NCBI RefSeq assembly: GCF_030013205.1
Contig: NZ_CP122648.1
DNA length: 64,000 nucleotides
Reading direction: 5' to 3' (one strand)
From: Escherichia coli
Lineage (GTDB): Bacteria; Pseudomonadota; Gammaproteobacteria; Enterobacterales; Enterobacteriaceae
Shown: positions 26,683-37,466 of the stretch, one piece after another
How positions within the stretch are numbered: the first letter of the stretch is position 1
Layout of the letters: each line of letters opens with the position of its first letter
Position numbers and translations under genes: made by a program
The notes under the pieces: model-generated
Database searches by the model: none
The model's input: the letters and a program-made list of their open reading frames with translations, nothing else
Told to the model about the DNA's origin: nothing

Positions 26683-26947
26683 AATATCGTACCGCTTAAT
26701 AAACGTCTCTGTCTGAAAAGATGGGGGCGTTTTTATTTTGCGAGCAGCATTCCTGATTTTAAACGTGAACGCCGCTGGAAGAATTATCAGGTATAGAATG
26801 GCGTTGGGTGCTTGAGGCTGTCTGGCGTTAAGCATTCGCGAGGTTCCAGATGGACAAAAGCCCCAGGCGATATTTCTATCAACCTGAGGCCAGCGTTCGA
26901 ACCCAAACAACTCGAATGTTAGTCTCTTCTTTGCAGGGAGGCAAGAC

Positions 26948-27100
26948 ATGCTGACAAAATATGCCCTTGTGGCAATCATAGTGCTGTGTTTTACAGTACT
27001 GGGATTCACGCTGATGGTAGGCGACTCGTTGTGTGAGTTGAGTATCAGAGAACGTGGTATGGAGTTTAAGGCAGTTCTCGCTTACGAATCGAAGAAGTAG
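26948..27100 (+). CDS. Hok/Gef-family type I toxin (small membrane peptide)
   Basis: 50-aa [54 protein letters not shown]-terminal TM helix and conserved Hok C-terminal DSLCE and AYES motifs; below the length cutoff of the ORF track. Confidence 0.7.
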
Positions 27101-27294: not shown

Positions 27295-29994
27295 ATGCGT
27301 AAATATCCTTTAAGTTTACTGAAGGATAAAAATATTGTGACTTTTTTTGATTTCTGGGGAAAAACCCGACGCGGCGAGAAAGACGGGGGCGACGACTATC
27401 ACCTTCTTTGCTGGCATTCGCTGGATGTAGCCGCGATGGGCTATTTAATGGTTAAAAGCAATTGCTTCGGGCTGGTTGACTATTTTCGTCAACTAGGTTT
27501 CGCTGATACGGAGCAGGCAGCACAATTTTTCGCCTGGCTATTGTGCTGGCACGATACTGGAAAATTTGCCCGCTCTTTTCAGCAACTTTACCTGCACCCA
27601 CAACTCAAGGTTCCGGAAGGCGCAAGAAAGAATTACGAAAAGATCTCTCATTCAACGCTGGGCTACTGGCTGTGGCATCATTATTTAAGTGAATACGAAG
27701 AATTGCTTCCTTCATCTTCACTCTCTCCGCGCAAACTTAAACGGGTGATGGAGATGTGGATGCCCATGACTACCGGGCATCATGGTCGGCCCCCTGACCG
27801 TATTGATGAACTGGATAATTTTCTGCCTGAAGACAAAGCTGCCGCACGAGATTTTCTCCTTGAAATCAAGGTACTGTTTCCGCTCATCGAGATCCCCGCA
27901 TTCTGGGATGATGACGAGGGCATTGAACTTTTAAAACAACTTTCCTGGTATATCTCTGCAACCGTCGTACTCGCAGACTGGACGGGATCGTCAACGCGGT
28001 TTTTTCCACGCGTTGCACAGGCAATGGATATTAAAGATTACTGGCAGAAGGCTTTAGTTCAGGCTCAAAACGCCTTAACCGTCTTTCCTCCAAAAGCACA
28101 AACCGCGCCTTTCACCGGAATTAATACACTGTTTCCTTTTATTGAGCACCCGACACCGTTACAGCAAAAGGTGCTGGATCTGGATATCAGCCAGCCAGGA
28201 CCGCAGTTATTTATTCTGGAAGATGTGACTGGCGCAGGTAAAACAGAAGCGGCGCTTATCCTGGCGCACAGGTTGATGGCTGCGAGGAAAGCACAGGGTT
28301 TGTTTTTTGGCCTGCCAACAATGGCAACGGCCAATGCCATGTACGATCGGTTGGTCAAAACCTGGCTTGCTTTCTATTCTCCAGAATCTCGCCCCAGCCT
28401 GGTGCTGGCACACAGTGCCCGCACATTAATGGATCGCTTTAATGAATCACTCTGGTCCGGTGATTTAGTCGGGTCAGAAGAACCGGATGAACAAACGTTC
28501 AGTCAGGGATGTGCGGCCTGGTTTGCCGACAGTAACAAGAAGGCGTTGCTGGCTGAAATTGGCGTCGGCACTTTGGATCAGGCGATGATGGCGGTGATGC
28601 CGTTCAAACATAATAATCTGCGGCTTCTGGGGCTGAGTAATAAAATCCTGCTGGCTGATGAGATCCACGCCTGTGACGCTTACATGTCATGCATTCTTGA
28701 AGGGCTGATCGAGCGGCAGGCGCGTGGCGGAAACAGCGTCATTTTGCTTTCTGCCACGTTATCTCAACAGCAGCGCGACAAACTCGTTGCTGCCTTTGCG
28801 CGTGGTACAGAGGGCCAGCAAGAAGCTCCGTTCCTGGAAAAGGATGATTACCCCTGGCTGACGCACGTTACGAAATCCGATGTGCATTCACACCGGGTAG
28901 CGACGCGCAAAGACGTTGAGCGTAGCGTGAGCGTGGGTTGGCTTCATAGCGAACAAGAATGTATTGCGCGTATCGAATCGGCAGTAAGTCAGGGGAAATG
29001 CATCGCCTGGATCCGGAATTCTGTCGATGACGCTATTAAGGTTTATCGTCAGTTGCTTGCCCGCGGCGTCATTCCTGCTTCCAGCCTTTCTCTGTTTCAT
29101 AGCCGCTTTGCTTTTAGCGATCGCCAGCGAATTGAAACGGAAACGCTGGCACGCTTCGGTAAAAGTTGTAGTTTACAGAGATCATCGCAACTCATTGTTT
29201 TTACACAAGTAATTGAACAAAGTGTGGATATTGACCTGGACGAAATGATATCCGACCTGGCCCCTGTTGATTTGCTGATCCAACGGGCGGGGCGATTACA
29301 GCGGCATATCCGCGATATTAATGGTCAGTTAAAGCGTGACGGAAAAGACGAGCGTTCCCCTCCTGAATTGCTGATTCTGGCCCCCGTCTGGGACGACGCT
29401 CCAGGTGACGAATGGTTCGGCAGTGCCATGCGTAACAGTGCATATGTCTATCCCGATCATGGACGAATCTGGCTGACGCAGCGTGTACTGCGTGAGCAAG
29501 GCGCGATTCAAATGCCACACGCAGCCCGCCTTCTTATTGAATCAGTCTACGGTGAGGACGTGGTAATGCCGGAAGGATTTGCCCGCAGCGAGCAGGAACA
29601 AGTGGGCAAATATTACTGCGATCGCGCAATGGCTAAAAAGTTTGTGCTGAACTTCAGGCCCGGCTATGCCGCCAATATCAACGATTACCTCCCGGAAAAA
29701 CTGTCGACACGTCTGGCTGAGGAGTCTGTTTCCCTGTGGCTGTCTACCTGTATTGCCGGTGTGGTGAAGCCTTATGCCAACGGTGCTCACGCATGGGAAA
29801 TGAGCGTTGTCAGAGTGCGTCGAAGCTGGTGGAAAAAACATCGGGATGAGTTTTCTTTACTGGAAGGGGATGCGTTCAGGCAGTGGTGCATTGAACAGCG
29901 GCAAGAGCCGGAGATGGCAAACGTGATTTTAGTCACCGATGACGAAAGTTGCGGGTATTCGGCTATGGAAGGATTGACTGGCAAGGTTGGTTGA
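27295..29994 (+). CDS. cas3: CRISPR-associated nuclease/helicase Cas3 (type I-E)
   Basis: 899-aa ORF; HD nuclease motifs (HLLCWHSLD, WHDTGKF), helicase Walker A (VTGAGKTEAA) and DExH-like box (LADEIHACD). Confidence 0.9.
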   Translation: MRKYPLSLLKDKNIVTFFDFWGKTRRGEKDGGDDYHLLCWHSLDVAAMGYLMVKSNCFGLVDYFRQLGFADTEQAAQFFAWLLCWHDTGKFARSFQQLYLHPQLKVPEGARKNYEKISHSTLGYWLWHHYLSEYEELLPSSSLSPRKLKRVMEMWMPMTTGHHGRPPDRIDELDNFLPEDKAAARDFLLEIKVLFPLIEIPAFWDDDEGIELLKQLSWYISATVVLADWTGSSTRFFPRVAQAMDIKDYWQKALVQAQNALTVFPPKAQTAPFTGINTLFPFIEHPTPLQQKVLDLDISQPGPQLFILEDVTGAGKTEAALILAHRLMAARKAQGLFFGLPTMATANAMYDRLVKTWLAFYSPESRPSLVLAHSARTLMDRFNESLWSGDLVGSEEPDEQTFSQGCAAWFADSNKKALLAEIGVGTLDQAMMAVMPFKHNNLRLLGLSNKILLADEIHACDAYMSCILEGLIERQARGGNSVILLSATLSQQQRDKLVAAFARGTEGQQEAPFLEKDDYPWLTHVTKSDVHSHRVATRKDVERSVSVGWLHSEQECIARIESAVSQGKCIAWIRNSVDDAIKVYRQLLARGVIPASSLSLFHSRFAFSDRQRIETETLARFGKSCSLQRSSQLIVFTQVIEQSVDIDLDEMISDLAPVDLLIQRAGRLQRHIRDINGQLKRDGKDERSPPELLILAPVWDDAPGDEWFGSAMRNSAYVYPDHGRIWLTQRVLREQGAIQMPHAARLLIESVYGEDVVMPEGFARSEQEQVGKYYCDRAMAKKFVLNFRPGYAANINDYLPEKLSTRLAEESVSLWLSTCIAGVVKPYANGAHAWEMSVVRVRRSWWKKHRDEFSLLEGDAFRQWCIEQRQEPEMANVILVTDDESCGYSAMEGLTGKVG

Positions 29995-30091
29995 GATGCC
30001 TGCGACAGGGCTCTCTGAATAGTTGATACACCGAAAAGGATGGAATGATGGACAACCGACCAGGGATGGTCTTTTTTACGAGAGGATGCGT

Positions 30092-31654
30092 ATGAACTCG
30101 TTTTCACTTCTGACAACCCCGTGGTTGCCCGTTCGTTATAAAGACGGAACGACAGGCAAACTGGCGCCAGTCGATCTGGCGGATGAAAATGTTGTCGATA
30201 TCGCTGCGCCGCGGGCAGATCTCCAGGGGGCGGCATGGCAGTTTTTGCTGGGACTATTACAAACCAGCTTCGCGCCAAAAGATCAACGTCGTTGGGATGA
30301 TATCTGGGAAGACGGACTGGAAGCTGAAAAGCTACGGGAAGCATTGCTGTCATTAGACCATGCTTTCCAGTTCGGGCCAGATTCACCTTCATTTATGCAG
30401 GATTTTGAGGCGCTCACGGGAGATAAAGTTCCGGTCGCTTCGCTACTGCCTGAGATTCCCGGCGTTCAAACAACAAAGTTTAATAAAGACCACTTTATCA
30501 AGCGTGGTGTAACGGAATACCTGTGCCCACATTGTTCTGCGTTAGCTCTGTTCTCCCTACAGTTAAATGCGCCGGCAGGCGGCAAAGGCTATCGCACCGG
30601 TTTACGCGGCGGTGGGCCGATGACCACGCTGATTGAATTACAGGAATATCAGGGCAATCAACAAACTCCCTTGTGGCGCAAACTATGGCTCAACGTGATG
30701 CCGCAGGATGAAGCCGACTTACCGCTACCCAAAAAATTTGACGATCTGATTTTCCCCTGGCTAGGCCCGACGCGTACCAGCGAACTGGCCGGTGCGGTGG
30801 TAACCCATGATCAGGTCAATAAACTCCAGGCGTACTGGGGAATGCCGCGGCGTATACGTATTGATTTTAATACCACGACAGTCGGCAACTGCGATATTTG
30901 CGACGAGCAGAACGACGCGCTCCTGAGCCTGATGACGACCAAAAATTATGGTGCCAATTATGCCATGTGGCAGCATCCCTTAACGCCTTACCGTGTACCA
31001 CTTAAAGAGGGGGGCGAGTTTTACTCCGTTAAACCACAACCGGGCGGTTTAATCTGGCGCGACTGGTTAGGCCTTATCGAAACGGGTAAATCAGAAAACA
31101 ATACGGAACTTCCCGCGCTGGTGGTGAAACTCTTTAATGCCAGCAGTCTGAAACAGGCAAAAGTGGGCCTATGGGGATTTGGTTATGATTTTGACAACAT
31201 GAAAGCGCGCTGTTGGTACGAACACCATTTCCCGCTACTGCTCAATAAAAAAGAAGGCCAGATACCGAAGCTGCGGCTGGCTGCGCAAACGGCTTCACGG
31301 ATTCTGAGTCTGTTACGGAGTGCATTGAAAGAAGCATGGTTCTCCGATCCAAAAGGTGCAAGGGGTGATTTCAGTTTTGTGGATATCGACTTCTGGAACA
31401 AAACTCAGCATCGCTTCCTGAGGTTAGTGCGCCAAATTGAAGAAGGTCAGGATGCGGATGAATTACTCGGCAAATGGCAAAAGGAAATTTGGTTATTCGC
31501 GCGTCAGGATTTTGACGAGCGTGTATTCACTAATCCTTATGAGCCCGTTGATTTGAAACGCGTCATGACCGCGCGCAAGAAATATTTTACAACATCGGCG
31601 GAGAAGCAAAGTGCTAAAGCCGCCTGGGAGAAAAAGCAGGAGGCTGCTGAATGA
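30092..31654 (+). CDS. cse1: Cascade large subunit Cse1 (CasA)
   Basis: start chosen at MNSFSLLTTPWLPVRY (RBS gagagg 6 nt upstream); track ORF begins at 30023; about 520 aa, first gene after cas3. Confidence 0.8.
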   Translation: MNSFSLLTTPWLPVRYKDGTTGKLAPVDLADENVVDIAAPRADLQGAAWQFLLGLLQTSFAPKDQRRWDDIWEDGLEAEKLREALLSLDHAFQFGPDSPSFMQDFEALTGDKVPVASLLPEIPGVQTTKFNKDHFIKRGVTEYLCPHCSALALFSLQLNAPAGGKGYRTGLRGGGPMTTLIELQEYQGNQQTPLWRKLWLNVMPQDEADLPLPKKFDDLIFPWLGPTRTSELAGAVVTHDQVNKLQAYWGMPRRIRIDFNTTTVGNCDICDEQNDALLSLMTTKNYGANYAMWQHPLTPYRVPLKEGGEFYSVKPQPGGLIWRDWLGLIETGKSENNTELPALVVKLFNASSLKQAKVGLWGFGYDFDNMKARCWYEHHFPLLLNKKEGQIPKLRLAAQTASRILSLLRSALKEAWFSDPKGARGDFSFVDIDFWNKTQHRFLRLVRQIEEGQDADELLGKWQKEIWLFARQDFDERVFTNPYEPVDLKRVMTARKKYFTTSAEKQSAKAAWEKKQEAAE

Positions 31655-32187
31655 GTATTGTAAAAGAGGAGCACAAAGCCACGCTGCGTAAATGGCACGA
31701 AGAGTTGCAGGAAAAACGCGGCAATCGTGCCAGTCTGCGGCGTAGCACAACGGTTAATGATGTTTGTCTGTCAGAAGGGTTTCGTTCTCTGCTGATGCAG
31801 ACCCACACGTTGTGGAAAATTGAATCACAGGAGTGGCGTTTTACCGCACTGGCGCTGGTTGCCGCCGTTGCCGCCAATGTAAAAGCCATTGATGAACGGC
31901 AGCCTTTTGCCGCGCAGTTGGCGGCGGTAATGTCTGAGGGGCGTTTTACTCGCCTGTCGGCAGTCAAAACGCCGGATGAATTACTGCGCCAGTTACGTCG
32001 CGCGGTCAAATTATTAAATGGTTCCGTCAATCTTATCTCTTTGGCAGACGATATTTTCCGCTGGTGCCAGGAGAGCGACGATCTGCTCAATCATCACCGC
32101 CGCCAGCAGCGGCCAACAGAATTTATCCGTATCCGCTGGGCGCTGGAATATTACCAGGCTGGCGACGCCGATAACGAACAAAATTAA
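31651..32187 (+). CDS. cse2: Cascade small subunit Cse2 (CasB)
   Basis: 178-aa ORF, start overlaps the cse1 stop; position in the I-E operon. Confidence 0.8.
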   Translation: MSIVKEEHKATLRKWHEELQEKRGNRASLRRSTTVNDVCLSEGFRSLLMQTHTLWKIESQEWRFTALALVAAVAANVKAIDERQPFAAQLAAVMSEGRFTRLSAVKTPDELLRQLRRAVKLLNGSVNLISLADDIFRWCQESDDLLNHHRRQQRPTEFIRIRWALEYYQAGDADNEQN

Positions 32188-32201
32188 TAAAGGACTATCT
32201 C

Positions 32202-33257
32202 ATGACGACATTTATTCAGCTTCATTTGTTAACCGCTTACCCTGCTGCCAACCTTAACCGTGATGACACCGGTGCGCCAAAAACTGTGGTACTGGGTGGA
32301 GCAACGCGTCTGCGCGTTTCCTCACAAAGTCTGAAACGTGCGTGGCGCACTTCTGCACTTTTTGAACAGGCACTGGCGGGCCATATTGGTATTCGCAGTG
32401 GGCGTATTGCGCGTGAGGCGGCAACTATCCTGATTGAGAAAGGCATCGAAGAGAAAAAAGCCATCGAATGGGCGGCAAAAATTGCGGATTATCTTGGGAA
32501 AGCTAAAAACGACAAAAAACCAAAAGATCCGCTCACTAACGCCGAAACTGAACAGCTAGTCCATATCAGCCCGGCAGAATTTGACGCCGTAAAAGCGCTG
32601 GCCCATCAACTGGCCGAAGAAAAGCGCGCGCCAAAAGAGGAAGATCTCGCTTTGTTACGTAAAGATCGCATGGCGGTAGATATCGCTATGTTTGGTCGTA
32701 TGCTGGCGAATAAACCCGAATTTAATGTTGAAGCCGCCTGCCAGGTCGCGCATGCATTTGGTGTCAGTGAAACGATTGTCGAAGATGATTTTTTCACCGC
32801 CGTTGATGATTTGCGCCAGGCTTCTGAAGATGCCGGTGCCGGGCATCTTGGTGAAACCGGATTCGGTTCTGCGCTGTTCTACACCTATATCTGCATCGAT
32901 AAAGATCTGCTGGTCGAAAACCTCGGCGGTGACGAAGCGTTAGCTAATCAGACCTTGCGCGCCTTTACGGAAGCCGCACTTAAAGTCTCCCCAACCGGCA
33001 AACAGAACAGCTTTGCCAGCCGTGCCTACGCCTCCTGGGCGCTGGCAGAAAAAGGCACTGAACAACCACGCTCTCTGGCGGCGGCTTTCTATGAACCCAT
33101 TAATGGCACCCGGCAGTTAGATGTGGCGGTGCAGCGTATTACAACGCTTCGCGAAAATATGAATACGGTCTATGAACAGAAGACCGAATGCGCAAGCTTT
33201 GACGTGATGAACAAACAGGGAAGCATGAAGGACGTGCTGGACTTTATCTGCGCGTAA
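32202..33257 (+). CDS. cas7: Cascade backbone subunit Cas7 (CasC)
   Basis: 351-aa ORF in the third Cascade position. Confidence 0.85.
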   Translation: MTTFIQLHLLTAYPAANLNRDDTGAPKTVVLGGATRLRVSSQSLKRAWRTSALFEQALAGHIGIRSGRIAREAATILIEKGIEEKKAIEWAAKIADYLGKAKNDKKPKDPLTNAETEQLVHISPAEFDAVKALAHQLAEEKRAPKEEDLALLRKDRMAVDIAMFGRMLANKPEFNVEAACQVAHAFGVSETIVEDDFFTAVDDLRQASEDAGAGHLGETGFGSALFYTYICIDKDLLVENLGGDEALANQTLRAFTEAALKVSPTGKQNSFASRAYASWALAEKGTEQPRSLAAAFYEPINGTRQLDVAVQRITTLRENMNTVYEQKTECASFDVMNKQGSMKDVLDFICA

Positions 33258-33267
33258 GGGGCGGCTA

Positions 33268-34014
33268 ATGAGCCAATATTTGATTTTTCAGCTTCATGGG
33301 CCAATGGCATCCTGGGGCGTCGATGCCCCCGGCGAAGTGCGTCATACCCATGAACTGCCTTCGCGCTCAGCATTGCTGGGGCTGCTGGCTGCCGGGGTAG
33401 GGATTCGGCGTGATGATACCGAACGATTAAACGCGTTTAACCGCCACTATTCACTGGTGGTTTGCGCCAGCCGTAACCCGCGCTGGGCACGGGATTATCA
33501 CACGGTCCAGATGCCAAAAGAGGTGCGTAAAGCGCGTTATTTCAGCCGTCGCGAAGAGTTGAGCGCCCCTGATCTTCTGAGCGCGATTATCTCCCGGCGC
33601 GACTACTACACCGATGCCTGGTGGATGGTGGCGGTGGCAACAACCCCCGATGCGCCTTACAGGCTTGAACAGTTGCAGGACGGTTTACGTCATCCGGTTT
33701 TTCCGCTTTATCTGGGGCGAAAAAGTCATCCGCTGGCGTTACCACTTGCGCCGTTACTGCTCGAAGGCAACGCGTCTGATGTCTTACGTAACGCATACCA
33801 ACAGTATCAGGATAGTTTCCGCGAACTGAAAGTCTCACTCCCGAAACTTCAGGATGAATGCTGGTGGGAAGGGGAACACGACGGCCTGGTCGCGAGCAAA
33901 ATATTACGTCGCCGGGATGTTCCTTTAAATCGTCAGCAGTGGCTGTTTGGGGAACGCACCATCAATCAGGGGCCGTGGCTCAGCAAGGAGGAACCATGTA
34001 CCTCTCAAGAATAA
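33268..34014 (+). CDS. cas5: Cascade subunit Cas5 (CasD)
   Basis: 248-aa ORF; operon position. Confidence 0.8.
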   Translation: MSQYLIFQLHGPMASWGVDAPGEVRHTHELPSRSALLGLLAAGVGIRRDDTERLNAFNRHYSLVVCASRNPRWARDYHTVQMPKEVRKARYFSRREELSAPDLLSAIISRRDYYTDAWWMVAVATTPDAPYRLEQLQDGLRHPVFPLYLGRKSHPLALPLAPLLLEGNASDVLRNAYQQYQDSFRELKVSLPKLQDECWWEGEHDGLVASKILRRRDVPLNRQQWLFGERTINQGPWLSKEEPCTSQE

Positions 34015-34642
34015 CCTTACATACCGGCCAGCTTTCGCCTGCGCAGTTGCTGCATCTGGTGGATCGCGGTGAATATGTAATGCATCAGTGGCTGTGGGAT
34101 CTTTTTCCTGGCGGCAAAGAAAGGCAATTTCTTTATCGTCGGGAAGAACTCCAGGGGGCGTTTCGCTTTTTTGTCCTGTCGCAGGAACGCCCGGCGGAAA
34201 GTGATATTTTCACCATCGAATGCCGACCATTTGCGCCAGAGTTGCGTACCGGACAATCCCTTTGTTTCAACCTGCGGGCGAATCCAACAATTTGTAAAGC
34301 GGGCAAACGCCACGACTTGCTGATGGAGGCGAAACGGCAGGTGAGGGGGCAGGTGGAAGGAAGTGATGTCTGGTTGCATCAACAACAGGCTGCGCTGGAC
34401 TGGCTGGCAGCGCAGGGGGAGAGAAGCGGTTTTACACTGCTGGATACTTCGGTTGATGCCTACCGACAACAGCAACTGCGGCGGGAAAACTCCCGGCAAC
34501 TGATCCAGTTCAGTAGCGTGGATTATACGGGGATGCTTACGGTCACCGATCCTGGGTTATTTCTGCAACGTCTCAGTCAGGGGTATGGCAAAAGCCGGGC
34601 GTTCGGTTGTGGTCTGATGCTGATCAAACCCGGAGCAGAGGC

Positions 34643-34646
<4 letters not shown>
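33996..34646 (+). CDS. cas6e: CRISPR repeat endoribonuclease Cas6e (CasE)
   Basis: internal ATG at 33996 with RBS aggagg gives 216 aa (MYLSRITLHTGQ); C-terminal glycine-rich loop GCGLMLIKPG. Confidence 0.8.
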
Positions 34647-35856
<1,210 letters not shown>

Positions 35857-35952
35857 GTTATCTGTTCTTTAAAAATAAGGAAATGTTTTAATTTAGTTGG
35901 TAGATTGTTGATGCGGAATAAATTTGTTTAAAAACAGTTATGTATGCTTAGT
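35857..35952 (+). promoter_or_regulatory. AT-rich CRISPR leader, cas2-proximal
   Basis: AT-rich 96 bp between cas2 and the first repeat; contains tttagttggtagattgttg, conserved with the queE-side leader. Confidence 0.6.
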
Positions 35953-36408
35953 GTGTTCCCCGCGCCAGCGGGGATAAACCGCATAATCCCGGCTGGAAAC
36001 ATTGCGGGGGTAAGTGTTCCCCGCGCCAGCGGGGATAAACCGCGACCGATCCCGCTGTTGCAACTTTTATTGAGGTGTTCCCCGCGCCAGCGGGGATAAA
36101 CCGGTGATGAGGAAAAGCTAATAGAATGGCGACGCGTGTTCCCCGCGCCAGCGGGGATAAACCGGTCCACGGTTCGACGCCTACCGCCGCAGCTATGTGT
36201 TCCCCGCGCCAGCGGGGATAAACCGTTGTCGGGCTTGTTCGGCGCGGGTTGTTAACTGTGTTCCCCGCGCCAGCGGGGATAAACCGCCAGTCGAAGATCT
36301 GGACGCGTGGGGAAAAGCGTGTTCCCCGCGTCAGCGGGGATAAACCGGACGCACTGGATGCGATGATGGATATCACTTAGAATTCCCCGCCCCTGCGGTA
36401 GAACTCCC
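35953..36408 (+). CRISPR. type I-E CRISPR array, 7 repeats plus a degenerate terminal repeat, 7 spacers
   Basis: 29-bp repeats GTGTTCCCCGCGCCAGCGGGGATAAACCG at 35953, 36014, 36075, 36136, 36197, 36258, 36319 (the last with gcgTcag); 32-bp spacers between them; degenerate final unit gaattccccgcccctgcggtagaactccc at 36380. Confidence 0.95.
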
Positions 36409-36428
36409 AGCTCTCATTTTCAAACCCA

Positions 36429-37466
36429 TCAAGACGCCTTCGCCAACTCCTTCACCAGAGGTAGCATTATCCGCATAACGTCACGGCAGCGACGTTCTAT
36501 TCTTCCAGGAAGTGCCTTATCAATATGTTGTTGATTATCCAGTCTTACGTCATGCCAGCTATTTCCCGCAGGGAATGCAGCTGTTTTTGCGCGTTGCTGA
36601 TAACCATCCTTATTCCCAAGATTCCAATTTGTTGCTTCTACCGAAAGTACGGCAATACCGGCTTTGTCGAAAACTTCGGCGTCATTACAACAGCCAGTAC
36701 CCTTCGGATAATTTTTATTCAAACCCGGATTGGTCGTTGCGGCAATTCCATGACTACGCGCAATTGCCAGCGCCCTGTCGCGCGTTAATTTCCTTACTGC
36801 TTCAGGGGTTTTTACACCGCTGTTGAAATACAATTTATCGCCAACAATTAAGTTATCGAGATTAATCACCAGCAGCGTATTTTTCTTTTCGGTGTCACTC
36901 ATCCGCTTGAGTAAATTCTCAGCACCTAATTTCCCTTCCTCTTCACCACTGGTCGCCACAAATCGAATACCATACTCGGTAGGCGTATTTTTCAGGCGTT
37001 CTGCCAGTTCCAGCATGACACCTAAACCTGCGGCGTTATCATCCATTCCTTGTAACGTCAGCCCGCCGAGATTGGCATCGGCGTCAGCATCGCTCAGCGG
37101 GGCGTATGTATCCAGATGCGCCATAATGATGATCTGCTGCGGCGCTTTGCCTTCATGAGCGGCAATCACCGTACTTCCCGTCACGTTATGCCAGCTCTTG
37201 CGATTATCGCGGGCGGTATAAATATACCGACTATTAAATGTCCGAATATCACTGCGATAACCCATTTGCTGAAACTGTTGGCGAATATAATCGGCAGATA
37301 ACATTTCTGCAGGAGTTCCGGTCATGCGTCCCGGAAAGAAAGTAGCAATATGTCGTGCCTGAGTATTAGCAAAATCGCCAGGTTTAGGTGACGAGGCGTG
37401 TACGGGGAGAATAAAGCATACGCCGAGCGCCAGGGCAGCGGTACGGTGGCGCAATGCGGAAAACAT
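36429..37466 (-). CDS. iap: alkaline phosphatase isozyme conversion aminopeptidase
   Basis: 345-aa ORF with signal peptide and M28-type peptidase features; convergent with the CRISPR array. Confidence 0.85.
   Translation of the reverse strand: MFSALRHRTAALALGVCFILPVHASSPKPGDFANTQARHIATFFPGRMTGTPAEMLSADYIRQQFQQMGYRSDIRTFNSRYIYTARDNRKSWHNVTGSTVIAAHEGKAPQQIIIMAHLDTYAPLSDADADANLGGLTLQGMDDNAAGLGVMLELAERLKNTPTEYGIRFVATSGEEEGKLGAENLLKRMSDTEKKNTLLVINLDNLIVGDKLYFNSGVKTPEAVRKLTRDRALAIARSHGIAATTNPGLNKNYPKGTGCCNDAEVFDKAGIAVLSVEATNWNLGNKDGYQQRAKTAAFPAGNSWHDVRLDNQQHIDKALPGRIERRCRDVMRIMLPLVKELAKAS

Follow-up and report, generated by a model that had tools for sequence, protein, structure and literature searches.

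RESULTS

Organization of the CRISPR1 locus

The stretch of Escherichia coli DNA analyzed here (64,000 nucleotides of contig NZ_CP122648.1, referred to as the window) contains a type I-E CRISPR-Cas locus. The genes run in the order cysH, hok/sok, cas3 through cas2, a CRISPR array, iap, and cysD, as they do in annotated E. coli genomes, and the locus is the canonical iap-cysH CRISPR1 of E. coli (Table 1).

TABLE 1 Features of the CRISPR1 locus and of the second array in the window
Feature	Position	Strand	Genomes with spacer (of 5426)	Description
CRISPR2	9979-10251	+		beside queE; 5 repeats, 4 spacers, same repeat family
cas operon	27295-35856	+		type I-E, eight genes
cas3	27295-29994	+
casA	30092-31654	+
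casB	31651-32187	+
cas7	32202-33257	+
cas5	33268-34014	+
cas6e	33996-34646	+
cas1	34643-35566	+
cas2	35563-35856	+
CRISPR1 leader	35857-35952	+		96 nt, cas2 stop to first repeat, AT-rich
R1-R7 and S1-S6	35953-36347	+		conserved repeats; exactly this span is marked CRISPR by PGAP in K_EC180
R1-R6	starts 35953, 36014, 36075, 36136, 36197, 36258	+		identical, GTGTTCCCCGCGCCAGCGGGGATAAACCG
R7	36319-36347	+		28/29 versus consensus; C>T at 36331, hairpin loop
R8	36380-36408	+		terminal repeat, degenerate, 18/29 versus consensus, GAATTCCCCGCCCCTGCGGTAGAACTCCC
S1	35982-36013	+	15	leader-proximal, newest; all swine, always inside array; CATAATCCCGGCTGGAAACATTGCGGGGGTAA
S2	36043-36074	+	17	all swine, array only; CGACCGATCCCGCTGTTGCAACTTTTATTGAG
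S3	36104-36135	+	20	targets prophage tail-fibre-assembly gene; array only; GTGATGAGGAAAAGCTAATAGAATGGCGACGC
S4	36165-36196	+	15	array only; also in longer human and gull arrays; GTCCACGGTTCGACGCCTACCGCCGCAGCTAT
S5	36226-36257	+	148	TTGTCGGGCTTGTTCGGCGCGGGTTGTTAACT
S6	36287-36318	+	19	array only; CCAGTCGAAGATCTGGACGCGTGGGGAAAAGC
S7	36348-36379	+	3742	ancestral anchor spacer; one place in each genome, including K-12 and O157:H7; GACGCACTGGATGCGATGATGGATATCACTTA
iap	36429-37466	-		downstream of array; then cysDNC

The array (35953-36408, plus strand) has eight 29-nt repeats with a period of 61 nt, starting at 35953 + 61i (i = 0 to 7). Between them are seven spacers, each 32 nt long and all unique. 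An initial annotation, made from the sequence alone, had described 29-bp repeats, seven regular 32-bp spacers, and a degenerate leader-distal repeat in this interval, and it was correct to the base. It had also called the array cas2 proximal, and indeed the leader fills the space between the cas2 stop codon and the first repeat. A search of the window with up to three mismatches found 12 copies of the repeat, whereas 0.00 were expected from 100 shuffles. Seven of the copies are in CRISPR1, and the other five are in a second array.

The consensus repeat folds into a hairpin with a 7-bp stem and a 4-nt loop (-15.2 kcal/mol, z = -3.2). The substitution in R7 is in the loop and leaves the fold unaffected. 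R8 cannot form the consensus hairpin and has a weak, different fold (-6.4 kcal/mol), and its sequence is conserved among related arrays. Functionally, the units are a 28-nt repeat and a 33-nt spacer, because each repeat takes its final G from the protospacer-adjacent motif (PAM) of the protospacer being acquired (PMC10011333).

We also considered a non-CRISPR interspersed repeat (REP/BIME or a coding tandem repeat), but despite minus-strand ORFs at 35948-36376 (142 aa) and 35928-36170, which arise because the G+C-rich repeat reads through, and a PGAP "hypothetical protein" called inside the shortened array of strain ETEC6333, this was refuted by the exact 61-nt period, the unique spacers, the E. 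coli I-E repeat family, and the location between cas2 and iap. The ETEC6333 ORF (positions 618-740 of the retrieved segment) is spurious, and the CRISPR feature is not annotated in that genome. An Rfam scan of the whole window at gathering thresholds returned sok only, and a permissive scan of 35800-36500 returned only sub-threshold chance matches. Neither says anything against CRISPR. Nothing argues against the CRISPR identity of 35953-36408, and its assignment as a type I-E CRISPR1 array is close to certain.

The sok match is part of a hok/sok toxin-antitoxin module between cysH and cas3 (26806-26963, plus strand; Hok ORF at about 26948-27100). It scored 107.5 bits, compared with a gathering score of 59, and PGAP assigns a Hok/Gef family protein here. 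In contrast to the window, the same cysH-cas3 gap of K-12 has no annotated Hok CDS.

The leader and cas genes are intact

The leader is about 24% G+C, compared with 52% for the window. At 35896-35908, between -57 and -45 relative to the repeat, it has the conserved block GTTGGTAGATTGT. In an alignment with the leaders of K-12 CRISPR1 and of the second array in the window, mean column identity was 75%, first repeat included, and the alignment included the block GTTGGTnGnTTGT at about -50. An upstream element at -50 to -55 in the K-12 leader contacts Cas1-Cas2 after bending by IHF (PMC10011333), and the conserved block covers this position. A simple sigma-70 consensus scan of the leader found no site. 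Since the K-12 promoter is described as weak, this was not taken to mean that the array is untranscribed. We infer that the leader has a promoter and binds IHF.

The eight cas genes are all of full length, and none has an internal stop codon. Every product exceeded the curated cut-off of an NCBIfam type I-E family (TIGR02547, TIGR02548, TIGR01869, TIGR01868, TIGR01907, TIGR03638, and TIGR01873), Cas3 doing so through its models for the core and the HD domain. The assignments agree with those made by PGAP for the near-identical locus in strain K_EC180.

The cas operon resembles the non-K-12 variant

E. coli K-12 CRISPR1 (also known as CRISPR-I, CRISPR2.1, or the iap array) occupies the same slot between cysH and iap, with the same cas3 through cas2 and array arrangement. 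The repeats are identical at 28 of 29 positions, position 2 being T in the window and A in K-12. Spacer length (32 nt) and period (61 nt) are the same, and the leaders are homologous. S7 matches the K-12 anchor spacer over positions 3-31. However, the window array has 7 spacers and that of K-12 has about 12-13, and the anchor alone is common to both.

The Cas proteins are more divergent. Identity to K-12 is 29% for Cas3, 22% for CasA, 21% for CasB, 29% for Cas7, 31% for Cas5, and 28% for Cas6e, whereas it is 84% for Cas1 and 81% for Cas2. The K-12-specific models NF007248 and NF007247 scored below cut-off in the window operon. The K-12-type (MG1655) cas variant was ruled out by the 21-31% identity of Cas3 and the Cascade proteins. 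A second, commoner E. coli type I-E cas variant, "var. B-8552," has tabulated lengths of 2700 bp for cas3, 1563 for casA, 537 for casB, 1056 for cas7, 747 for cas5, 651 for cas6, 924 for cas1, and 294 for cas2, and all equal those in the window (PMC12736100). Its reported identity to K-12 is approximately 29-32% for Cas3, Cas7, Cas5, and Cas6 and 84-86% for Cas1 and Cas2 (PMC12736100). The window operon shows this pattern too, and we found no difference between the two in a comparison made through published lengths and identities. By these measures, the window cas operon belongs to the second, non-K-12 variant.

A second array and its relationship to CRISPR1

The second array, CRISPR2, has the repeat GAGTTCCCCGCGCCAGCGGGGATAAACCG, and its last copy has a C>T change in the loop and ends in A. 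PGAP annotates CRISPR2 in K_EC180, where it is approximately 122 nt (two units) longer than in the window. The cas operon beside CRISPR1 presumably serves CRISPR2 as well. The last spacers of CRISPR1 and CRISPR2 are related, with 16 of 18 bases shared between GCGATGATGGATATCACT (36348-36379) and GCAATGCTGGATATCACT (10191-10222), and 1 of 20000 shuffles was as good. Therefore, CRISPR1 and CRISPR2 may have arisen by duplication of one ancestral array.

Some differences between the window and K_EC180 were found outside the arrays. The surroundings of CRISPR2 (about 7.8-13.8 kb of the window) contain genes flagged as pseudogenes in K_EC180, namely, ygcG with an internal stop and ygcE and yqcE with frameshifts. 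There are also many small indels between the two sequences near CRISPR2 (14 and 6 gap openings), which may be assembly errors in the window or in K_EC180. At about 50.7-51.5 kb in the window, pphB is interrupted by a copy of IS1, and about 298 nt of the adjoining pphB remnant, present in K_EC180, are missing from the window.

Spacer distribution follows the polarity of the array

We searched 5426 complete RefSeq E. coli genomes for the leader, array, and individual spacers. The leader and array together were 100% identical in 10 genomes, all from swine, and the array is annotated as CRISPR there. Examples are K_EC180 (NZ_CP062203.1), EC556, and ETEC4067. K_EC180 differs from the window by 2 SNPs over 24.5 kb around the locus, and its annotated CRISPR feature ends at R7, leaving out S7 and the degenerate repeat. 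The differences at CRISPR2 and beside IS1 show that the window does not come from K_EC180.

The spread of the spacers follows array polarity, from 15 genomes with S1 to 3742 with S7 (Table 1). For the spacers found in 20 genomes or fewer, every listed place was the CRISPR1 locus. Each spacer had one place per genome, apart from one extra place for S5 in one genome, and no protospacer or self-target was identified in the 5426 genomes. Within the window, none of the spacers matched elsewhere with up to 9 mismatches. The initial annotation had placed S1 exactly, with its sequence, and had named it the most recent acquisition, which fits these counts. Its description of the spacer content as strain specific holds in part. 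S1 and S2 are restricted, but they mark a lineage rather than a strain, whereas S3 through S6 also occur in unrelated human and gull isolates, and S7 is nearly species wide.

Of the 15-20 related arrays, we examined only a few from end to end. In the pig lineage, O139:H1 strain W13-16 has S1, S2, S3, S6, and S7 (lacking S4 and S5), ETEC4068 has S1, S2, S4, S5, S6, and S7 (lacking S3), and ETEC6333 has S2, S3, S6, and S7 (lacking S1, S4, and S5). None of the pig-lineage arrays that we retrieved had a new spacer at the leader end, and the variants were losses only. Isolates from South Korea and other countries had the same seven spacers without change, and relatives from France, Belgium, and the Netherlands differed by deletions only.

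Unrelated isolates from humans and gulls have arrays of 14-22 spacers that contain S3 through S7 in the same order, with other spacers interspersed. Therefore, the window array is a shortened remnant of a longer ancestral array. S1 and S2 are two lineage-specific additions at the leader end. Their confinement to one lineage indicates at least two acquisitions after the split from the lineages with longer arrays.

S6 lies next to the anchor, and in different lineages the same slot is held by another spacer, CCAGCGAAGGACTTGCTCGTGTGGTTAAAGCC, which we found in four of the retrieved loci. An ungapped comparison of S6 and CCAGCGAAGGACTTGCTCGTGTGGTTAAAGCC gave 19 identities over 32 positions; 17 of 200000 shuffles were as good, and the next-best unrelated pair among 53 spacers gave 16/32. 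In one frame, the two read PVEDLDAWGK and PAKDLLVWLK, with three synonymous differences. The same protospacer site may have been sampled independently from two diverged mobile elements.

CRISPR-Cas DNA is also found on a plasmid. pIOMTU792 (NZ_LC542972.1, 240815-252967), a 293-kb conjugative IncHI2A plasmid of E. coli, has casB through cas2, a CRISPR1 array of 10 spacers, and iap. This copy is approximately 2 kb from ISEcp1-blaCTX-M-15, which suggests a transfer of chromosomal CRISPR-Cas DNA to a resistance plasmid.

S3 matches a prophage tail-fibre-assembly gene

The initial annotation had noted that spacer content can reveal past phage or plasmid encounters. This was borne out for S3, which has a perfect 32/32 protospacer in the IMG/VR contig IMGVR_UViG_2529293142_000021 (L008, 4274-4305). 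The match is in a non-repeat context, with ATG directly 5' of it. Six further contigs, which we retrieved through the neighboring tail-sheath protein as indexed in 179 blocks of an assembly collection, all have the identical protospacer and ATG, making seven contigs in total. The E. coli I-E system accepts ATG as a PAM, along with AAG, AGG, and GAG. Therefore, S3, the sole spacer with a protospacer, has the AAG-type PAM that the initial annotation had suggested looking for. The PAM is on the side predicted by transcription from the leader to the right, which independently supports the orientation of the array.

The protospacer falls within the 3' part of a tail-fibre-assembly gene (phrog_136; Pfam Caudo_TAP), which is in a P2-like tail module with genes for baseplate J, tail protein I, tail fibre, fibre assembly, sheath, tube, and tape measure. 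The nearest deposited phages are 76.5% identical, and the complete E. coli genomes contain only relatives at 76-83% identity. No complete E. coli genome that has S3 also has its protospacer. The targeted gene is split by a frameshift near position 4200 in the first contig (L008, 3806-4383), which may be a sequencing error or a pseudogene, and it is intact, encoding 192 aa, in four of the other contigs.

Searches for sources of the remaining spacers

We also searched several collections for the other spacers. INPHARED was searched by blastn with the seven spacers joined by N linkers and E values up to 10. No credible protospacer for any spacer was found among INPHARED phages or PLSDB plasmids at this limit. 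A 22/23-nt match of S7 in Pseudomonas phage DNA polymerase genes (INPHARED, E = 3) was treated as chance, as was a 21-nt Nocardia match in PLSDB (E = 3). The other PLSDB matches were chromosomes filed as plasmids and one real plasmid bearing a copy of the array and, therefore, were not protospacers.

The IMG/VR, metagenome, and GTDB searches were exact-pattern scans. For IMG/VR, positions 1-23 of the spacer were used, and the bases flipped out within Cascade (positions 6, 12, and 18) were set to N. This pattern returned nothing for S1, S2, S4, S5, or S7, and a second IMG/VR pattern for S1 (positions 8-32) also returned nothing. The metagenome and GTDB scans covered S1 and S2, and neither spacer was found in metagenome contigs (JGI) or in GTDB species-representative genomes. 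S6 matched three homologous G+C-rich IMG/VR contigs at 25 of 32 positions, with GTC at the PAM position. This was rejected as a source and judged to be chance because only 5 of the 12 bases outside the 20 fixed by the pattern matched, as expected at random, the PAM was GTC, and the phage DNA is G+C rich.

In the collections searched, the six spacers other than S3 matched only E. coli CRISPR arrays. The initial annotation had cautioned that the array would be less significant if all of its spacers matched only other E. coli arrays. By this criterion, the result for the six lowers the significance of the array, but S3 is an exception. S1 and S2 may record a mobile element of the pig gut that is absent from all of the collections searched. 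This origin of S1 and S2, the sampling of one site by S6 and CCAGCGAAGGACTTGCTCGTGTGGTTAAAGCC, and the duplication relating CRISPR1 to CRISPR2 are readings that we consider, as a group, to be rather unlikely.

DISCUSSION

How the system could operate can be outlined from the biochemistry of K-12, which is the source of the model for crRNA, Cascade, Cas3, and acquisition (PMC10011333). By this analogy, a weak promoter within the AT-rich leader would drive rightward transcription of the array. Cleavage by Cas6e at the base of every hairpin would release 61-nt crRNAs, each with an 8-nt 5' handle (AUAAACCG), the 32-nt spacer, and a 3' hairpin of 21 nt. Cascade (CasA-E) would hold the crRNA, bind a matching protospacer beside an AAG-type PAM, and recruit Cas3 for degradation. 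New spacers would be inserted by Cas1-Cas2 with IHF at the junction between the leader and R1, which would make S1 the youngest spacer and S7 the oldest. Because the repeat 3' of S7 cannot form the Cas6e hairpin, S7 probably yields no mature crRNA. Transcription, processing, interference, and silencing are all predicted here by analogy with K-12.

All of the parts are intact, and so the system looks competent. It is probably also repressed by H-NS, as in K-12. The E. coli system is silenced by H-NS (PMC10011333), and E. coli arrays are stable, with targets that are mostly prophages or unknown (PMC10910852). Together with variation by loss only over several countries and spacers without matches, the H-NS literature leads us to favor a competent but largely quiescent system. 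Our conclusion that this is a type I-E CRISPR1 array serving as a competent but slowly changing, quiescent record is one that we hold with good confidence. The evidence on activity is indirect, and some of it weighs against this reading. The demonstration of H-NS silencing was made in K-12, and identity between its Cas3 and Cascade proteins and those encoded in the window is only 21-31%. Also, S1 and S2 represent at least two acquisitions after the lineages split.

A different view is that the immune system is active in nature and the array is its memory. On this view, S1 and S2 were acquired recently from unsequenced phages or plasmids of the pig gut, and the lineage is protected now. The intact cas genes, leader, and repeats are compatible with this, as are the restriction of S1 and S2 to 15-17 swine isolates, the perfect match of S3 to a real prophage with a functional type of PAM, and the absence of that protospacer from the genomes that carry S3. 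However, the same seven spacers are kept across South Korea and other countries, and the European relatives differ only by deletion. Furthermore, sources of S1 and S2 are absent from INPHARED, PLSDB, IMG/VR, the JGI metagenomes, GTDB, and the 5426 E. coli genomes, and surveys have found E. coli arrays to be static and unmatched to coresident phages (PMC10910852). We consider current immunity to be unlikely.

It is less probable still that the array is a nonfunctional, decaying neutral relic, like the orphan arrays of E. coli strains without cas genes. The degenerate terminal repeat, the species-wide fossil S7, the shortening from arrays of 20 or more spacers, and the fact that the observed changes are all losses might be read in this way. 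However, neutral decay would be expected to damage at least one of the repeats, cas genes, and leader. Instead, six repeats are identical and a seventh differs in its loop only, the eight full-length cas genes are well above the family cut-offs, and the leader is conserved.

The array is a known structure that is already annotated, and it raises nothing new about mechanism or open questions. It can be used as a lineage marker, because S1 and S2 are found in 15-17 swine isolates that include ETEC-named strains and O139:H1, and its deletion variants separate sub-lineages. The array is also one more case of the stable type I-E arrays of E. coli, in which change is mostly the loss of spacers and the identifiable targets are prophages.
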